IMG/VR virus record: IMGVR_UViG_3300036770_005287
Location: 21,033 to 85,032 of that record
Strand: one strand, 5' to 3'
DNA length: 64,000 bases
DNA from: a virus
The position numbers and the translations under genes are program-made. Below the pieces are notes generated by a model. That model was not told where the DNA came from, did not search any database, and was given only the letters and a program-made list of their open reading frames with translations. Numbering within the stretch: position 1 is the stretch's first letter; each line of letters opens with the position of its first letter. This document shows positions 6,536 through 58,363 of the stretch, piece by piece.

Positions 6536-6550
6536 TTAACGTTAGGATAA
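6536..6550 (+). promoter_or_regulatory. Asymmetric operator motif TTAACGTTAGGATAA
   Basis: One of 11 near-identical copies. Confidence 0.7.
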
Positions 6551-11280: not shown

Positions 11281-11670
11281 GTGAACGAGTTCAAAAACAC
11301 CCAACAGGAATTATCTACAGTTTTAGGCGCCGAAGTTATTACCGGAGCATTAAGAGACAACCTAATAGGGTACTCTACGGATAGTGCGCTTCAGATGATA
11401 GAAGGGTTGAGACACCAAAGCCTGGAGGAAAACAACCTTCTTTTTGGTGCTTGCCACGTTTTGTTGGATTTGTTACCAGCTAAGTTGAGGGACTTAGACG
11501 GCATTGAACTTGCCATTGCAGACCTTATCGCTACACACACTGACTGTCTGAGGCAGCGTGTGTTATTGCTGCAATCAGAGCAGAACAACCTAGGGGGCGC
11601 ATCTGCTGATGTATCAAAGTTACAACGACATCAAACTTGCGAAGCAATCATGCGAACAGCTTGCTCTTGA
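11281..11670 (+). CDS. Hypothetical protein in Coi/Imc position upstream of C1
   Basis: GTG start with GAGGA RBS; acidic; assignment by position only. Confidence 0.55.
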   Translation: MNEFKNTQQELSTVLGAEVITGALRDNLIGYSTDSALQMIEGLRHQSLEENNLLFGACHVLLDLLPAKLRDLDGIELAIADLIATHTDCLRQRVLLLQSEQNNLGGASADVSKLQRHQTCEAIMRTACS

Positions 11671-12430
11671 GCTGCACGCTCGATTTTCAGACCATGTAAC
11701 ATATCGTGAAAAACTACCGGACGGCAGCTATCGCCGTCCTGTGATAGTCCTACGCAACCAAGCAGAGTTAGATGATGTCATAAAGGTTCGGGATGAAATC
11801 ACCCGGATCCGTGACCAGGTGCTCGAATCGACGGGCAGCTCTGTCCGCTTTACTGAGCCACGTATCGTTGAAAACGTTCTGCTGTATAAAGTGTGGGTCA
11901 ACACTGAGCGCAGCAGCAGTTATAACCAGACTTCACGGCTTGAGATTATCCATAACATTAAACAGCGATTAGAGCGGGCCAACCGCAACGCAGATAATGA
12001 CATTGCTCAAATGACAGCCTTGCTACTGCGTAAAGAACTGAAGTTTTTCGAAGGTGAAACAGAAGAGTACTACCGCGCACGGACAATTGGCTTGCCATCT
12101 TCTGATGCAGAGTGCCACCTGGCGAACCATGGCCGCGAGAAGATCAAAATATCTGAAGCCGGCTTATTTATCGTTGGTCCAAATTTTGACATACCCCGCG
12201 GCGACTTTCCTGAAGGACGAAAGCCACGCAAACCACGAGCAAGCGTCTATGACGGCCTTGAACAAATTCAGTACTCAGGTGCAGTCAGTAGCGTGCTGTA
12301 TCGGGAAAGCGAAGTAATTGCAGCCAAGCGCCGGGCCGGCTTTGATGACGAGAAGCAGGAGCAGATTAAGAACATGAAAAAATCTGTGTCTCGCCGCAGT
12401 CCTGGCGCGCCGCCAGAACACCCGATCTGA
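11609..12430 (+). CDS. c1: P1 C1-like primary repressor
   Basis: DGSYRRPVIVL, YRARTIG, AGLFIV, ASVYDGLEQI and LYR blocks parallel P1 C1 as recalled; convergent with the pac operon as in P1. Confidence 0.75.
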   Translation: MYQSYNDIKLAKQSCEQLALELHARFSDHVTYREKLPDGSYRRPVIVLRNQAELDDVIKVRDEITRIRDQVLESTGSSVRFTEPRIVENVLLYKVWVNTERSSSYNQTSRLEIIHNIKQRLERANRNADNDIAQMTALLLRKELKFFEGETEEYYRARTIGLPSSDAECHLANHGREKIKISEAGLFIVGPNFDIPRGDFPEGRKPRKPRASVYDGLEQIQYSGAVSSVLYRESEVIAAKRRAGFDDEKQEQIKNMKKSVSRRSPGAPPEHPI

Positions 12431-12440
12431 TATGACGGGC

Positions 12441-13028
12441 CTATAGCACGGCCCGCATTCTGGTTAATTCCAATAGCCGCCCCAGGTAATGCTGCAGCGG
12501 CTTTAAGTCTTTTGGCAAGCCAAAGCGCTGCACCGCCTGATAGATCAGCACACCGTAAAAGAAATCCATAGCCGACATTTCCGCACCCAACAAGAACCGT
12601 CCCGCATTGCAGGCCGGTGCCAATTCACGCAGCGCAGCAAATAGGTCTGTCCGCGCCCTTATTGCGTTTCTACCTTCACCGCAGGCGCATTGATAGGCCG
12701 GCAAGAAAAACTGCTGAAAGCGCAGCAGCGTGAGGCGTATGAGGGCACGCTGAGCAATGTCATGCGGCAGCAGCAGCGGTTCGGGATAGCGCTCAGCTAG
12801 GTAATCAACAATCACCATGGCATCATACAGCGTACAATGGTGCTGCACCGCCAGCACTGGCAGTATGCCGGCCGGATTGATGGATCTGAGCGATTCTGGC
12901 ACGTCCTGGACCGATACTTTCCGGATATGTAAGCCAAGCTCAGCTATCATCCAGCGAATTGCCTGGCTGTTGATGCTGTTATCGTCGTAGAGCGTAATAG
13001 CCCGGTCAATTTCGTTGTTTTTGAGCAT
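12441..13028 (-). CDS. sspA: Stringent starvation protein A (SspA)-like GST-fold protein
   Basis: LRSINPAGILPVL...IVDYLAERYPEPLLLP...RALIRL parallels SspA LNPNQSVPTL...YLDERFPHPPLMP...RGESRL. Confidence 0.75.
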   Translation of the reverse strand: MLKNNEIDRAITLYDDNSINSQAIRWMIAELGLHIRKVSVQDVPESLRSINPAGILPVLAVQHHCTLYDAMVIVDYLAERYPEPLLLPHDIAQRALIRLTLLRFQQFFLPAYQCACGEGRNAIRARTDLFAALRELAPACNAGRFLLGAEMSAMDFFYGVLIYQAVQRFGLPKDLKPLQHYLGRLLELTRMRAVL

Positions 13029-13030
13029 AG

Positions 13031-14572
13031 TTAACCCTCATAGAATTCTTCTAAATCATCCACTTCGCCATCCAGATCAGCGGCTGAGCTCATTACGTTG
13101 TGCGGTATGTAGTTAATGATTTGCGTAAACATGTAGGTATCAGAACGGTCAGGTGAAGCGATTTGCAGCTTGTTGCGCATCACCTCTTTTTTCATCATCA
13201 CCCAAAGTCCAGACTCATCCATGCCTATCGGCAGTTTTGATAACTGGTCGATTGTTTTCGGGTCCGCATCGATAGCCATGCGACCGGATAGGATGGCTTC
13301 TTTGCCGTAGATATGCGCCTTGGCCCGCAGGTTTTTAAATCGCTTTTTCTCAGCCGGCGTAACCGGTGGAAAGCCCCAGCGAATGCGCACCAGGTTGATA
13401 TTGAGGCCCATATCGCGCAACAGCTCAATCTCTTCGAGCAAGTGCAGGTAAACCGTATAGCCCACGCCATCACCGTCTACCGCTATGGTGATATTCGGAT
13501 AGAGCTCAGTGCAGCATTCCGCCACAATGCGGCGTACAAACTTGAGCGGATCCACGTCGGCGGACATTTCCAGCAGTTTGTGATTCACCACAACACGCTG
13601 AGGACCTTGCGAACCCGACATGCGGCCGATATTGAGCACTGAGCGGTCGCGGCCAGCCCCGATATCGACCGTTGCATACCATCCCCAATCTTCGCCCAGC
13701 TTTTTCGCCACTTCCTGGCGCGCCACTTTCGACGCAGCAGCTTGCACAGCGTCACGGCCCAATAGGAAATCGGACATATTGGACGGGAACCGGCCCAGTA
13801 CTTTGATCTGAAATTCAGGACTATCGAGGCCGCCATATTCCAGCAGCTTATCGAGGATAAATTGCCGGGTAACGTGGCGGGACAGGGCAGAGCTCAGCGT
13901 TATTGAATTCCAGGTTCCACTGGTTGATTTTGTACGGCTTAAATCGTGGTGCGTGCGATAGAAGTAGCCACCAACACGGGTAGGCTGTGACAGCAGCAGA
14001 ACCCGGTTATCAACCGATGTCTGCGCCCCCATGATGACACCAAAAGCCCGATCGTTAACGCCCGATGCTTCATCGACAATCGTTAACATGTGATCGGCGT
14101 GCTCACCGGCGAGTGACTCTTCGTTGTTGAGCCTAAAGCCCTTGGGCGTGACGTACCAAACACCTTTCTGAGTGCGCTCAAAGAACGTCGTTTCTGTCAG
14201 AACAAAGTATTCAGCAAGCCAGGGCAGGCGCTTTTGCAGCGCAGCAAAGTGGATCTTCAGGTTTTTCCAAACCGCATCCATAACCTGCTTAATTTTGTTC
14301 GCAATGATGACTACCCGCGCGCCTGGGTAGAGAATCATATAAAGCAGAATAATAGCGGCAGTAATAAACGATTTACCGGTACCATGGCCGGAGCTGACGG
14401 ATGTTCGGCTGCCAACTTCGGACACGCTATCGAGCAGCATGCGCTGCTGTGCATCTGTTTCAATGCCAAACAGCACCGCCATTGCGCCATCCCAATCCTG
14501 GTCAAAAGTCTCAATCAGCCACGGATAGCGGCGGTCACTTGTCAGACTGGTTATGCGCTTGGCCGGTATCAT
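13031..14572 (-). CDS. pacB: Terminase large subunit (PacB)
   Basis: SGHGTGKS Walker A, IVDEASG Walker B, VDIG and SPDRSD nuclease motifs. Confidence 0.92.
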   Translation of the reverse strand: MIPAKRITSLTSDRRYPWLIETFDQDWDGAMAVLFGIETDAQQRMLLDSVSEVGSRTSVSSGHGTGKSFITAAIILLYMILYPGARVVIIANKIKQVMDAVWKNLKIHFAALQKRLPWLAEYFVLTETTFFERTQKGVWYVTPKGFRLNNEESLAGEHADHMLTIVDEASGVNDRAFGVIMGAQTSVDNRVLLLSQPTRVGGYFYRTHHDLSRTKSTSGTWNSITLSSALSRHVTRQFILDKLLEYGGLDSPEFQIKVLGRFPSNMSDFLLGRDAVQAAASKVARQEVAKKLGEDWGWYATVDIGAGRDRSVLNIGRMSGSQGPQRVVVNHKLLEMSADVDPLKFVRRIVAECCTELYPNITIAVDGDGVGYTVYLHLLEEIELLRDMGLNINLVRIRWGFPPVTPAEKKRFKNLRAKAHIYGKEAILSGRMAIDADPKTIDQLSKLPIGMDESGLWVMMKKEVMRNKLQIASPDRSDTYMFTQIINYIPHNVMSSAADLDGEVDDLEEFYEG

Positions 14573-15729
14573 TCGAAATCAGCCGGATCTATATCGACAT
14601 CGCCCATGATGTCAGTGTCATCATCCATGAGGCTAATATCGTCATCCGTGACACTCTCCGTAACCCGGACATCACCCACTTGCCCGGTGGCCGCCAGCGT
14701 ATTATCAAGCCAAGCCTGGCGCTCAGATAGCTCATCCACGCTGGCATTTTTACGCTCAATGGCTCTGCGCCTTGCTTCTTCAATCGCTTCATTCGTCAGG
14801 CCGCCATCTTCAGGCGGTGGTGGCGTTGCTTCCTTAATTTCTTTATCAGACTCTGCCTGCAGGAATCTTGGCGGCTCAATCCCGTTTTCAGCAAACAGCT
14901 TGCAAGTGTCAGTGGCACTTAACTCTTCCAGAGCGCGGCGCTGCAAAATCGCAGCCGTCATTTCAACAATTTCACCGCGGCTTAAATGCGCCATATCCCG
15001 GCGCATCTTCTCCATGCTGATCGCTTTCTCTTCAACCTGCACGGCCAACTGCACCAGGCGGGTTAATGGCTCAATGCCGGAATATTCAACTTCCTCCATG
15101 GCCTCAAGCAATGTCATTGGCTCATTGATTTCCCCGTCTGGCGTCCACACCGGACGAGTCATCTTTTTGCCTTCACTGTAGAGCTGATTGATAGCATTTG
15201 CTTTCGCCTGGCGAATGCGGGCCATACCGAGTAACCGGCTCTTTGCCAGCTGACCTAAATCCGCCAGGCTGAAATCAGCCGGGTCGCATTCCAGATCTAA
15301 ATCAGTCATCAGCCGGCTATAGGCGCCATGTTTTACCGATGCTGTATTGCCTTGTGTGAATGTCCTGGTGCCATCCTCACGCAATACAACATTCGGATGA
15401 GATTGGCCGGCGGCTGTTTTGACAGTGACATTGATCCGTGGCACGCGCGTCGATCCCGCCCGCCCTTTACCCGCTTTGGGCTTTTGCGCAGCGGTGCGCG
15501 GTTCATCGTTTTTTTTCGACGGTTCGGACTTAGCTGGTCCGACCTTTTTCGGTTCTTTTGCTGGCTTTGTTTCGGGCTGATTGCCAGCACTTTTAAAGGC
15601 GGCAAACTCCCGGCGAAAACTGTTTGGATTGAGCTTGTGCTTTTCACAATAAGCATTGCGCGCTGCCGCGGACTGATCCGCCTGCTTTGAGAATGCAACA
15701 CAATGTTTATGCCAGTGCGACTTTGACAA
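14569..15729 (-). CDS. pacA: Terminase small subunit (PacA)
   Basis: 386 aa; YCEKHKLNPNSFRR N-terminal HTH; FTQGNTASVKHGAY; coupled to pacB. Confidence 0.8.
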   Translation of the reverse strand: MSKSHWHKHCVAFSKQADQSAAARNAYCEKHKLNPNSFRREFAAFKSAGNQPETKPAKEPKKVGPAKSEPSKKNDEPRTAAQKPKAGKGRAGSTRVPRINVTVKTAAGQSHPNVVLREDGTRTFTQGNTASVKHGAYSRLMTDLDLECDPADFSLADLGQLAKSRLLGMARIRQAKANAINQLYSEGKKMTRPVWTPDGEINEPMTLLEAMEEVEYSGIEPLTRLVQLAVQVEEKAISMEKMRRDMAHLSRGEIVEMTAAILQRRALEELSATDTCKLFAENGIEPPRFLQAESDKEIKEATPPPPEDGGLTNEAIEEARRRAIERKNASVDELSERQAWLDNTLAATGQVGDVRVTESVTDDDISLMDDDTDIMGDVDIDPADFE

Positions 15730-15735
15730 ACTTTA

Positions 15736-15750
15736 TTATCCTAACGTTGA
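15736..15750 (-). promoter_or_regulatory. Asymmetric operator motif overlapping pacA RBS
   Basis: TCAACGTTAGGATAA, 6 nt before the pacA TTG. Confidence 0.7.
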
Positions 15751-15779
15751 GTAGGCTTTATTTTTTGTCGAATGATAAC

Positions 15780-15956
15780 TGATCACTGCAAACTGATCAC
15801 TGATCAGCTGTGACAAAGTGAAAATATGTGATCAAACTGATCACGCGCCGCGAATAACGCAGCGCGCAATACATTGTTTTATATGAGATAAATCAGGAAT
15901 GATGTTCAGAATCCTGATCAGCTTTGTTTGCATTGAAATGCGCACAAATTTGATCA
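15780..15956. other. Putative pac (packaging initiation) site
   Basis: Seven TGATCA hexamers at 15780, 15794, 15801, 15829, 15838, 15915 and 15951, as in P1 pac. Confidence 0.75.
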
Positions 15957-16210
15957 GAATCAGCACCTTCTAAGAGCATTGTTTGCAGCTTTTCGAGTGT
16001 AATTTTTTGGCAAACGCCAGTATCGGTTAACACCAAGCGCACGTATTCAGCCGGTGTGTATTGGTGCCGTTCAGCCAGTATTCTGAGCAATAGCCGCTCA
16101 GTCTTTGACATTGGGATGCGCACGTCCTGAATGTCAAACTGCCGGCGCTTCTCCCGGAAACGACGAACCCGCACGCGGGCCGCCTGGCGTTTCTTATCAG
16201 CGGTATTCAT
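15893..16210 (-). CDS. Lpa-like late promoter activator
   Basis: Basic N-terminus ARVRVRRFREKRR plus RHH-like segment; immediately upstream of pacA like P1 lpa. Confidence 0.55.
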   Translation of the reverse strand: MNTADKKRQAARVRVRRFREKRRQFDIQDVRIPMSKTERLLLRILAERHQYTPAEYVRLVLTDTGVCQKITLEKLQTMLLEGADSDQICAHFNANKADQDSEHHS

Positions 16211-16784
16211 GCGGCAATTCCTCATCACCTGTTAGATTTGCATAGTCCAGAAATGCCCGCTTCACCGCATCCAGGCCATACGCAAACACCGCACAGTAGC
16301 CATCTGCACGCAGCTGTATCGCCTTCTTCTCCTGCTCATCAGATGGTTTTCCCTTTTCGGTTTTAAGCTCACAGCGAAAGCCGTGGTATTTCCCCCTGGC
16401 TAAATCCATACAGGTATCGAGCACGCCCTTTTTCTGGCCCTCCGCCTGCATCTTCCAGGCGGTTAACGGTCCACGCTTGCCGCTGTTAGGTACCGCGTGC
16501 GTGCGCTCATACAAATCCGGGTAGTTGTTTTCCAGCCACCAGAACAATTCCACTTGAATGTAATGCTCTTCGTTTCCCTTAATGAGCTCAGGCCGCTCCC
16601 TGAGCTGTTTTAACGCTTTACCGTGCGCCGATAGCTTGTCTTTATCCGTCGGGATGGTAGCGGGCTTTGCAGGACCTTTATTTTCTGACTTTGGCCGACT
16701 GGCCGATCTGGCACTGACGCGCAAATTCCTATTTTTCTGCATCAGCCGCTCGAAATCTTCAGGCGATAGTTTAATGCCACTCAT
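16197..16784 (-). CDS. VRR-NUC domain nuclease
   Basis: EHYIQ...HAVPNSG...EGQKKGVLD...ELKTEKGKPSDEQ. Confidence 0.85.
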   Translation of the reverse strand: MSGIKLSPEDFERLMQKNRNLRVSARSASRPKSENKGPAKPATIPTDKDKLSAHGKALKQLRERPELIKGNEEHYIQVELFWWLENNYPDLYERTHAVPNSGKRGPLTAWKMQAEGQKKGVLDTCMDLARGKYHGFRCELKTEKGKPSDEQEKKAIQLRADGYCAVFAYGLDAVKRAFLDYANLTGDEELPHEYR

Positions 16785-18020: not shown

Positions 18021-18377
18021 TCAATCATTTTTATTAATGCGCGAACCGGCATAAAACCGGTCCACCGCTTTGCGTTCCAGCACATCGTTTGGCGTGATAG
18101 CGACCAGATACTGATGTTTGAGTTTTTTGTACTCTTTTTCAGCTGCAGCTAGGCGCTGGGATTGCGCCTTAATCACACCGATCGCATGCATGAGTTCAAC
18201 GCCGGTACCATGGCAATCCATACAATCGAGCGGCCCGAGCAACCCGGACACCTTGCCTGTACCCTTGCACACCTGACAAAGCGGCATCGACTTGACCGCG
18301 GGCTCATCCGATATCACTTCAATCGTGACAATAACGGGCGTTGCCGCGGTGCCTTTGCGGGGGACTATCTTGCTCAC
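18021..18377 (-). CDS. DnaJ-type zinc-finger protein
   Basis: CQVCKGTG...CMDCHGTG. Confidence 0.75.
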   Translation of the reverse strand: MSKIVPRKGTAATPVIVTIEVISDEPAVKSMPLCQVCKGTGKVSGLLGPLDCMDCHGTGVELMHAIGVIKAQSQRLAAAEKEYKKLKHQYLVAITPNDVLERKAVDRFYAGSRINKND

Positions 18378-33804: not shown

Positions 33805-34386
33805 TTAAGCCGGCGCACTTACCTGCGACGCTGGCGCCAGAAATAGCCGCCAGTGACGCCAGATTTCATCCAACAGCGGGCTGGGCGTAAAAACCGCCAG
33901 CGCTTCAGCTGCCAATTCAAATTCAGATTGCCGGCAAAAGACTTGCACAAAACGGCTTTGCACAAACCAGGCAACAAACTCAGCCGAGTCGTCAAACTGA
34001 GCAAGCTCATGCTCTCGATGCAAATCATGCATATCGCGCTGAGAAATAGAGCCCGGCAATGGTGCGTAAATGTAAGGGACGCCGGCGCTTTGTGGGCCTT
34101 GTAACACCCGAGCCAGCCGGGCGCGCGTTTCTTCAACTGAGAATTCAAGTGCATTCGGGCCGAGTAACTTACAAAACTGGTCTTTGGAATAGGACCGCAG
34201 AACGCTAAGCGGCGTAGAGTGCCCGGCAGTCACAGGGAATTGGTGAGTCTTTTTCCACAAACCAACCTGAACAATCAAAAGGCCAAGCGTCGATGTTTGC
34301 TCAAGCCGAAACAGGATATTGACCACGCGGTCTTGATGACTGTATTTAATCGTCGGCATTTCAGGCGTTAGTAGGGACGCTGACAT
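33805..34386 (-). CDS. Hypothetical protein
   Basis: 193-aa ORF. Confidence 0.6.
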   Translation of the reverse strand: MSASLLTPEMPTIKYSHQDRVVNILFRLEQTSTLGLLIVQVGLWKKTHQFPVTAGHSTPLSVLRSYSKDQFCKLLGPNALEFSVEETRARLARVLQGPQSAGVPYIYAPLPGSISQRDMHDLHREHELAQFDDSAEFVAWFVQSRFVQVFCRQSEFELAAEALAVFTPSPLLDEIWRHWRLFLAPASQVSAPA

Positions 34387-35245: not shown

Positions 35246-36097
35246 ATGGAAACTATCTTCACAATTCGGCATAGCGCCGCGTTGGTATCTGCTATTGAGC
35301 TTTTGATATCAACAAAAATGATAAAATCAGGGCCTGGCAGGACATTGCAGGCCATTGCGCTTTTCTGGAATCCGCAAGGACAAATCTACCCGAGTCAGCA
35401 AAAACTAGCGCTGATGACCGGCGTTGCACGCCGAACCATCATTACTCACATTCAGGCTTTAACTGACGCCGGGATAATCACGACATCTGCCCGCTTTAAG
35501 AAACACACTGACGGCACTGTTAGCTGCGCCAGTCTGAACTATGCCTTTGTGCAATCGAAGCTGGGAGAGCTGTTTGCCAAAGCCCGGCTTGCACTGAAAA
35601 AAGCCGCGGTTGCAGCAGCCAAGAGCCAGAAAAAAGATCACATAGCCCCCCTGGAAAATGATCACACTATCAGCTCTACCGAGCATGGTCCTTCGGACGT
35701 TAAGATCACTGTCCGCAGCGCACTGCTGGACTGGTTTAAATCTCAAATCTCAAAAGCTCTGCAAAGCGAAAGCAATCACCAGGGCGCTATTGCCAAAAAA
35801 GCAGCCTATAACGCAGCTACAGAACGCAACCGCATTGCAAGAGGGCAAGCATTCAGCCCTGAAGAGCAAAAACGCCGCAAAGCCATTGCAGACGCGGTAA
35901 GGCCTGAGCGTGAAAAAGCCGCCAGCACGGCAGAACGGATTATTGAGCTGTCAAAAGCCCTGCTAACCTGGACGCGCAGTAAAACCGGTTTTGACAAGGC
36001 GCAGCATGCCGAGCTGATGACACTCACGGCAAACGGCGCCTATCTGGATATCGCAACCAAGATTGCAGCTGGCAACTATTCAGCAGCTGCAAATTAG
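35246..36097 (+). CDS. HTH-domain replication initiator (Rep)
   Basis: IYPSQQKLALMTGVARRTIITHIQAL..AGII; upstream of spanins like P1 repA-upfA-mlp. Confidence 0.65.
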   Translation: METIFTIRHSAALVSAIELLISTKMIKSGPGRTLQAIALFWNPQGQIYPSQQKLALMTGVARRTIITHIQALTDAGIITTSARFKKHTDGTVSCASLNYAFVQSKLGELFAKARLALKKAAVAAAKSQKKDHIAPLENDHTISSTEHGPSDVKITVRSALLDWFKSQISKALQSESNHQGAIAKKAAYNAATERNRIARGQAFSPEEQKRRKAIADAVRPEREKAASTAERIIELSKALLTWTRSKTGFDKAQHAELMTLTANGAYLDIATKIAAGNYSAAAN

Positions 36098-36112
36098 CGC
36101 TGGTTTTATCAT
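36094..36112 (+). promoter_or_regulatory. Putative late promoter TTAGCGC-N6-TATCAT
   Basis: Upstream of spanin genes. Confidence 0.65.
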
Positions 36113-40264: not shown

Positions 40265-40283
40265 AGCATACCGCTGGCGCTAA
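40265..40283 (-). promoter_or_regulatory. Putative late promoter TTAGCGC-N6-TATGCT
   Basis: Faces the portal gene. Confidence 0.65.
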
Positions 40284-48675: not shown

Positions 48676-49017
48676 TTATTCCAGAATTGCAGCCACAATG
48701 GCCAGCACTTCGTTGACGATTTCTGCAGGGGCTTTTTCGACTTTCACCGCCTGCCGCGCTGTCAAATCAACAGAGCGAATGCCGTTGGCAAGTACAACAC
48801 CTTGGGTATCGGTGCCTGACCCCATCAGTGTCACAGCAAAGCCCTCAAAACGAGCATAGTTACCACCTTGTGTAATCGGGGCGATCACTGTAAGGCCAAG
48901 CTTGTTAAACTGCTTGGTAGACAGCACCAAACAAGGCCGCATATCGCCCTGAATCTCATTACCGGCAGTCGGGTTTAAACAGGCCCGTACAATGTCGCCA
49001 CGTTCAAATACAGCCAT
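48676..49017 (-). CDS. mazF: MazF/ChpB endoribonuclease toxin
   Basis: ERGDIV...NPTAGNEIQGDMRPCLVLS...FNKLG...APITQG. Confidence 0.9.
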   Translation of the reverse strand: MAVFERGDIVRACLNPTAGNEIQGDMRPCLVLSTKQFNKLGLTVIAPITQGGNYARFEGFAVTLMGSGTDTQGVVLANGIRSVDLTARQAVKVEKAPAEIVNEVLAIVAAILE

Positions 49018-58344: not shown

Positions 58345-58363
58345 ATAGTAAAACACGCGCTAA
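58345..58363 (-). promoter_or_regulatory. Putative late promoter TTAGCGC-N6-TACTAT
   Basis: Faces the lydA-dar operon. Confidence 0.65.

Follow-up and report, generated by a model that had tools for sequence, protein, structure and literature searches.

Late promoters of phage P1 need the phage protein Lpa together with the host protein SspA (PMC7515715), and the presence of an SspA-like gene in the terminase operon of a phage raises the question of what such a protein does there. The gene in question occupies positions 12441–13028 (minus strand) of a 64,000-nucleotide stretch of viral DNA (the window), corresponding to bases 21033–85032 of the IMG/VR record IMGVR_UViG_3300036770_005287 (G000). 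This 85,032-bp record originates from a subsurface metagenome, carries direct terminal repeats and is rated complete. The encoded protein of 195 amino acids (aa; P0001) is best described, judging from its sequence and predicted fold, as a non-catalytic, diverged SspA paralogue that has become fixed in the phage. The most economical reading of its function, on which we remain evenly divided, is that of a polymerase cofactor at late promoters carrying a box near −22.

Affiliation of P0001 with SspA emerges from sequence, profile and fold comparisons. Pfam sees N-terminal glutathione S-transferase (GST) domains alone (GST_N_3, E 4e-8), and the top NCBIfam family is SspA at 70.3 bits, with the next family at 45. 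Corresponding scores for relatives are 108 versus 32 bits for P0019, 135 versus 31 for P0020 (both, like P0006, clade members encoded on other contigs), and 139 versus 35 for the protein of a second complete phage, IMGVR_UViG_3300033997_000406 (G001, 84,431 bp); indeed, SspA is the best family for every clade relative, with scores of 55–139 bits. The top ten sequence matches among solved structures are all SspA or SspA homologues, including those of Burkholderia (E 1.4e-18), Yersinia (E 1e-16) and E. coli (E 7.5e-13). BLASTP aligns P0001 to E. coli SspA with 29% identity over 177 aa (E 2e-17), and a profile of the phage clade matches the same protein over its full length with 99.9% probability. 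An AlphaFold (AF2) model of P0001 (predicted local distance difference test score, pLDDT, 85.8) retrieves SspA-family chains at Foldseek ranks 1–26, with TM values of 0.78–0.84, among them two cryo-EM entries of the E. coli polymerase–SspA complex and Francisella SspA, and its neighbours in the ESM Atlas belong to SspA or GST_N clusters of Pseudomonadota. The initial annotation had described a GST-fold open reading frame (ORF) 2 nt past the pacB stop, with SspA-like blocks and YPEP in place of FPHP; each of these observations holds, as does its wider view that the phage encodes a GST-fold protein belonging to the SspA branch, from a gene in the pac operon and with an altered PHP motif.

Alignment adds features that are common to the phage clade and SspA. 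Both possess an N-terminal extension of about 10 residues and the same indel pattern in the helix 4–5 region, and both carry S-[HQL]-A-[IV]-R at the site of CPYC-ARVR in the catalytic GSTs; most clade members also end, as SspA does, in F-x-x-S-L. The LDC motif of SspA occurs in four of five aligned phage-clade proteins, P0001 having MDFF. P0001 itself has S-I-N-S where the enzymes have CPYC and Asp-Ala where they have the Glu-Ser glutathione contact, and at the aligned places lacks any CxxC, Ser or Tyr catalytic motif. Two motifs, FF-[LIV]-PA and LKPL-[QR]-x-YL, are confined to the phage clade and may mark a new interaction surface.

The ancestry of this clade has to be considered against a large bacterial GST family, found by exhaustive search and by a metagenome scan (whose pattern was too generic and returned soil CPYC GSTs alone), that bears an identical ERYPEP-LLP linker at 35–39% identity. 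These CPYC glutaredoxin-like GSTs of soil bacteria share the linker with P0001 but, unlike the phage proteins, have the CPYC active site and a Pro-Glu-Ser glutathione motif, begin directly at strand 1 without an N-terminal extension, and differ in helix 4–5 length. In an unrooted tree of 122 rows the phage clade is monophyletic (support 97) and meets the CPYC GSTs and SspA in a trichotomy. A careful maximum-likelihood tree, to which seven E. coli GST paralogues were added as outgroup, nests the phage clade (100/100) in SspA, with a 99/95 branch joining it to 39 SspA rows and leaving a PHP-bearing subclade, the CPYC GSTs and the outgroup outside. Descent of the phage clade from SspA is regarded as likely, though short of proven.

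The gene is the last of the pac operon. Its ATG lies 2 nt past the stop of pacB (13031–14572, minus strand), and its Shine–Dalgarno sequence GAGGG is situated inside the pacB 3′ end. PacB, a terminase large subunit of 513 aa, matches its counterparts in P1, P7 and D6 with 46–50% identity over 96–97% of its length. The preceding pacA-like gene (14569–15729, minus strand) encodes a terminase small subunit of 386 aa that matches terminase small-subunit PHROGs as well as the N-terminus of P1 PacA. On the other side, a convergent c1-like gene (11609–12430, plus strand; 273 aa) with weak similarity to P1 C1 terminates 10 nt from the stop of the SspA-like gene. This arrangement points to translational coupling of the SspA-like gene with pacB, and the gene holds its place even between phages that have diverged. 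No gene separates pacB from c1 in P1 or D6, and no P1-like phage with a relative of the SspA-like gene was found among 50,697 phage records, in which the few matches were bacterial fragments. Some further features of the locus may be mentioned. A GC-rich hairpin (12436–12455) bridges the gap between the c1-like and SspA-like stops (region 12431–12455), and, as in P1, convergent transcription from the pac operon would enter c1 in antisense orientation. Five TGATCA hexamers, which are Dam sites and resemble a pac site as read from the sequence, lie upstream of pacA at 15779–15845; the P1 pac site is inside pacA, whereas these repeats precede it, and similar TGATCA repeats surround the pacA promoter of G001.

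Elsewhere the window codes for a DarB-like protein of 2270 aa, portal and tail proteins, a ParA-like partition protein, a short tyrosine recombinase and a LydA-type holin, and this gene content, together with pacA and pacB, identifies G000 as a distant P1/D6-like phage-plasmid. A PemK/MazF-type toxin gene (48676–49017, minus strand; Pfam E 3e-22) is presumably part of an addiction module of the phage-plasmid. G001 shares the gene order of HNH-like ORF, pacA, pacB, SspA-like gene and convergent c1-like gene, with protein identities to G000 of 71% for PacB, 48% for PacA, and 39% for both the C1-like and the SspA-like proteins, the last value falling within the proteome-wide range of roughly 30–70%. 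Close relatives of the SspA-like protein (84–93% identity) are found on other contigs, one of 84,929 bp, and more distant clade members are P0006 (47% identity to P0001, on an 84,339-bp contig), P0019 (44%) and P0020 (38%). An intact gene is also present in contigs from other studies, namely those of a soil metagenome and of isolate-labelled runs. The frame is full length and unbroken in every relative seen, 20 columns are invariant across eight clade members, and among the nucleotide differences listed (a partial list) none is a frame-breaking indel and most affect the third base of a codon (22 of the 34 in one contig). The SspA-like gene is thus a conserved feature of a small lineage of ~85-kb P1/D6-like phage-plasmids. 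Megablast of the region against the phage collection gave no match, scans of viral contigs with P0001, P0019 and P0006 returned nothing besides G001, and scans of genome contigs with the SspA-like alignment and PacB found no relative.

Given that SspA serves P1 alongside Lpa, the status of Lpa in this lineage is of obvious relevance. The initial annotation, which reported the P1 requirement for both proteins as the literature states it (PMC7515715), placed the gene in an lpa-pacA-pacB cluster and proposed partnership with an Lpa-like protein. Of this cluster pacA and pacB stand, while lpa does not, and no such partner is detectable. The ORF in the lpa position of P1 and D6 (15893–16210, minus strand; 105 aa, or 111 aa if started from the GTG at 16228) resembles neither the P1 nor the D6 Lpa and has no match to any Lpa family or in the phage collection; it matches weakly one PHROG lacking assigned function. 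For lack of Lpa similarity it was rejected as an Lpa candidate. It has no counterpart in G001, whose HNH-like ORF and pacA are 218 bp apart. As a side observation, its N-terminus is strongly basic and it is weakly similar to NikA and ribbon-helix-helix proteins. More broadly, phrog_1704, which contains the Lpa of both P1 and D6, found nothing in the complete G000 and G001 genomes at E<=10 (the D6 control gave 4.7e-62), tblastn for Lpa also found nothing, and hhalign of a P1 and D6 Lpa alignment against 48 G000/G001 orthologue pairs reached a best probability of 12%. Together these three negative results define a lineage without detectable Lpa.

The promoter design of P1, on the other hand, appears to have been retained. 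Predicted late-promoter-like motifs combine a −10 hexamer with a TTAGCGC box that spans −25 to −19, and have no obvious −35. The box falls where P1 late promoters have their annotated −22 region; the box of the P1 late promoter LPpac, ATGTGACTT, differs in sequence from TTAGCGC, and the comparison uses this single annotated site. Exact occurrences of TTAGCGC-N6-TAnnnT number three in G000 (0.17 expected) and five in G001 (0.26 expected; positions 34202, 55459, 60241, 65036 and 67158), a count matched by none of 100 simulated sequences per genome. In G000 they precede a spanin-like ORF (TTAGCGC-N6-TATCAT, 36094–36112, plus strand), the portal gene (TTAGCGC-N6-TATGCT, 40265–40283, minus strand) and the LydA-type holin gene (TTAGCGC-N6-TACTAT, 58345–58363, minus strand). 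The holin and spanin-like sites are syntenic exact matches in both genomes, and a third syntenic site, before a gene of 336/339 aa, is exact in G001 and carries one mismatch (ATAGCGC) in G000. G001 also has a TTAGCGC-type promoter with a 7-nt spacer before pacA; inspection by eye found no such box directly upstream of pacA in the window. Thus, by way of the late-type promoter of the pac operon in G001, the SspA-like protein may itself be made late.

A second recurrent element bears on when the operon is expressed. The 12-mer AACGTTAGGATA is present in 12 copies in G000, of which ten, exact or with one mismatch, lie in the window (at 6538, 6891, 11136, 15737, 18385, 22613, 34856, 40241, 58377 and 62752, against 0.11 expected) and two upstream of it. 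One copy (15737–15748, minus strand) is located 8 nt before the pacA start, and a G001 variant stands at the same place. The element is asymmetric (yTCAACGTTAGGATAA) and often precedes start codons by 0–10 nt, where its AGGA can double as a Shine–Dalgarno sequence; in two cases its reverse complement provides the −10 (TATCCT) of a TTAGCGC-type promoter. G001 contains nine copies of a variant, TTAaCTGTTAGGATAA, whose right half (GTTAGGATAA) is shared with G000 and whose left half is different, so that the 12-mer was rejected as an element specific to G000. From its sequence and placement the element looks like the operator of a diverged C1-like repressor, and its position before pacA suggests that the operon of pac and SspA-like genes is probably silent in the lysogen. 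Directly behind another operator copy lies a 118-aa ORF (18021–18377, minus strand) with a CxxCxGxG-type zinc-ribbon pair and 42% identity to its counterpart in G001, where an operator variant again precedes it. This zinc-ribbon ORF is a candidate early regulator or late activator.

Retention of the P1 promoter design, absence of a detectable Lpa and addition of an SspA-like gene are the chief circumstantial grounds for giving the protein a part in late transcription. The conserved position of the gene adds to this case, which is also the one for the co-activator conjectured in the initial annotation, where host-independent late expression and perhaps a wider host range were suggested as consequences. 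The lineage would have captured an SspA gene from a proteobacterial host and fixed it at the end of the pacA-pacB operon. Its product would most likely have kept the SspA type of dimer and would sit on sigma70 RNA polymerase, as a homodimer or together with host SspA. There it would act as the polymerase-side cofactor for late promoters composed of a −10 and a TTAGCGC box near −22 without a −35, the part taken by host SspA in P1, while the box would be read by a DNA-binding activator other than Lpa. Dimerisation, polymerase binding and the late-promoter role are what we infer here, and an SspA-derived RNA polymerase cofactor of this kind, working with a DNA-binding activator either alone or paired with host SspA, is in our judgement as probable as all other accounts together. 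In its support, the characterised SspA-family proteins are all polymerase-associated regulators (PMC7515715).

How far the surfaces of P0001 conform to this picture was assessed by mapping the contact residues of E. coli SspA (PMC7515715) onto it via alignment and BLASTP. At the dimer interface six of ten residues are identical (L69, Y78, E81, R96, R100 and L101), as compared with 29% identity overall, and the remaining four read M for R73, D for E77, A for V94 and A for G97, two of these changes being conservative; the pattern is consistent across the phage clade. Among polymerase contacts the loop residues R82, P84 and P86 are kept and F83 is replaced by Tyr, the motif aligned to ERFPHP of E. 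coli reading ERYPEP. P-E-P recurs in P0019, P0020 and the G001 protein, and P0006 has Y-D-P. Binding to sigma70 region 4 and to the beta′ zinc-binding domain, as expected of an SspA, was addressed through this residue mapping. As far as this mapping goes, the dimer face of P0001 is better kept than its polymerase face. Coupled with the loss of the histidine, this fits a protein that dimerises in the manner of SspA, possibly with host SspA, and whose outer face has been remodelled. A heterodimer with host SspA resembling MglA–SspA, the alternative offered in the initial annotation, would fit the conserved dimer residues at least as well as a co-activator would. A complex prediction of two P0001 copies with E. 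coli sigma70 residues 530–613 gave a score of 0.05 and a mark of 0.32, and counts neither way.

Several observations weigh against a polymerase cofactor. The PHP histidine, which in E. coli SspA inserts into sigma70 region 4 and whose replacement alone (H85A) weakens binding to polymerase (PMC7515715), has become Glu in P0001 and Asp in P0006, and the polymerase-contact residues R65, Y92 and P93 are likewise changed (to H, D and I, respectively). Since ERYPEP is also found in catalytic CPYC GSTs, the kept loop is not specific evidence for polymerase contact. The 70.3 bits scored by P0001 lie far under the NF007016 SspA equivalog cut-off of 314 bits, and the phage clade sits on a long stem of 1.1 changes per site. 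The nested position of the clade favours the kinship with SspA read into the gene at the outset, but an approximately unbiased (AU) test of a forced clade of phage proteins and CPYC GSTs (cost 30.7 log-likelihood units) yields p = 0.087 and so does not formally reject this grouping. The partner activator of the SspA-like protein is so far hypothetical, and a protein made late would need host SspA, or read-through, to start the circuit. Finally, the scans of genome contigs did not identify the host, nor hence the presence of a host SspA.

Other accounts of the same data differ in how much they explain. P0001 could be a host-takeover factor, an SspA mimic that enters into mixed dimers with the SspA of the host or takes the place of the latter on the polymerase, thereby switching off SspA-dependent programmes (stress, H-NS control, CRISPR adaptation) or damping sigma70, and that is not required at late promoters. 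The better preservation of dimer residues than of polymerase-contact residues suits such a mimic, as do the inhibition of sigma70 transcription by E. coli SspA itself in vitro (PMC7515715), the host stress and defence programmes that the part of the literature consulted places under SspA control, and the late-type promoter of the terminase operon in G001, by which the protein may be made late. Against it, the restriction of the gene to a P1-related lineage with −22-box promoters would go unexplained; its location behind a repressor-type operator also means that it is not a lysogenic-conversion gene. On balance this account is unlikely. A narrower version of the late-transcription scheme, in which the phage paralogue has replaced both Lpa and a purely host SspA by pairing with host SspA and offering a phage-specific polymerase face to a small non-Lpa DNA-binding protein (the zinc-ribbon ORF at 18021–18377, for example) that fires TTAGCGC-box promoters, must be called speculative and unlikely as a whole.

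An ordinary enzyme or ligand-binding accessory protein of the GST fold, carried as cargo for redox or detoxification purposes, would account for the fold itself and for the ERYPEP linker that is identical in catalytic CPYC GSTs at 35–39% identity; the AU test (p = 0.087) leaves kinship with these GSTs possible, and some SspA homologues have been crystallised with glutathione, to go by the titles of the structures. The missing CxxC, Ser or Tyr motif and the exchange of Glu-Ser for Asp-Ala are nevertheless hard to reconcile with catalysis, the indels and motifs specific to SspA are shared by P0001, profile scores favour SspA by 25–100 bits over any enzyme family, and the gene is coupled to pacB and keeps its position in phages that have diverged. 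We thus consider an enzyme decidedly improbable. The SspA-like proteins of G000 and G001 have diverged fast, sharing 39% identity where the PacB proteins share 71%; this and the loss of the PHP histidine could also mean that a captured host sspA is decaying and no longer has a function. Yet every relative seen retains a complete, unbroken frame, the 20 invariant columns persist across the clade, the divergence equals that of many other genes of the two phages, and differences in the partial list fall mostly at third positions (the 22 of 34 noted above for one contig), all of which makes decay a most implausible explanation. The polymerase cofactor at −22-box promoters continues to serve as our working interpretation.

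Comparison with characterised systems helps to delineate what is shared and what is new. P0001 resembles the SspA of E. coli and Yersinia, the P1 co-activator, in its GST fold without enzyme motifs, its N-terminal extension and its helix 4–5 dimer residues. It is 29% identical to the E. coli protein, with which it has R82, P84 and P86 in the contact loop in common; SspA gives the best match to its predicted fold, and, like SspA, it is tied to a P1-type phage with −22-box late promoters. It departs from E. coli SspA in being phage-encoded within a pac operon and not beside sspB (the sspA-sspB context is absent), in PEP for PHP and the changes at R65, Y92 and P93, in its 195-aa length without a C-terminal tail, and in a polymerase contact that is so far putative. 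Francisella MglA–SspA with PigR offers an analogy for a diverged SspA paralogue that could pair with canonical SspA and provide a surface on which a DNA-binding activator docks where the promoter has a poor −35. MglA, however, is chromosomal and of marginal sequence similarity to P0001 (E 0.02), and for P0001 a heterodimer, ppGpp binding and a PigR-like partner would all be hypothetical. With the late module of P1 and D6, G000 and G001 share pacA-pacB followed by convergent c1 and late promoters with a −10 hexamer and a box at about −22 before holin, portal and lysis genes; unlike P1 and D6 they have no detectable Lpa, a TTAGCGC box, and the extra SspA-like gene. An SspA paralogue, annotated as 'glutathione binding-like protein', is also present on a Pseudomonas aeruginosa megaplasmid (NZ_OL468012.1, 2468–3064), where it scores 178 bits against the SspA model. 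A similar match occurs in about 105 further plasmid records of Pseudomonas, and the ten of these that were listed share the annotation. Like the phage clade it is an SspA-family gene on a mobile element (~30% identity to P0020), but unlike P0001 it is plasmid-borne, keeps PHP (ERYPHP) and has another gene context.

No paper describing a phage-encoded SspA was found in the literature searched, the nearest item being that on SspB in phage pf16. Of all host factors, SspA alone is known to be essential for late transcription in P1, and its cooperation with Lpa is not understood structurally. A lineage with its own diverged SspA, no detectable Lpa and −22-box promoters still in place is in this respect a natural experiment, which could show which SspA surfaces serve activation rather than polymerase binding and could reveal a second, non-Lpa activator. 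If the phage paralogue has indeed replaced the P1 arrangement of Lpa and host SspA, the phage would bring its own polymerase adaptor. As SspA paralogues are also carried by Pseudomonas megaplasmids, the theme may be wider than phages, and the lineage described here could tell us if the rewiring of host RNA polymerase through SspA mimics is a strategy of mobile elements.

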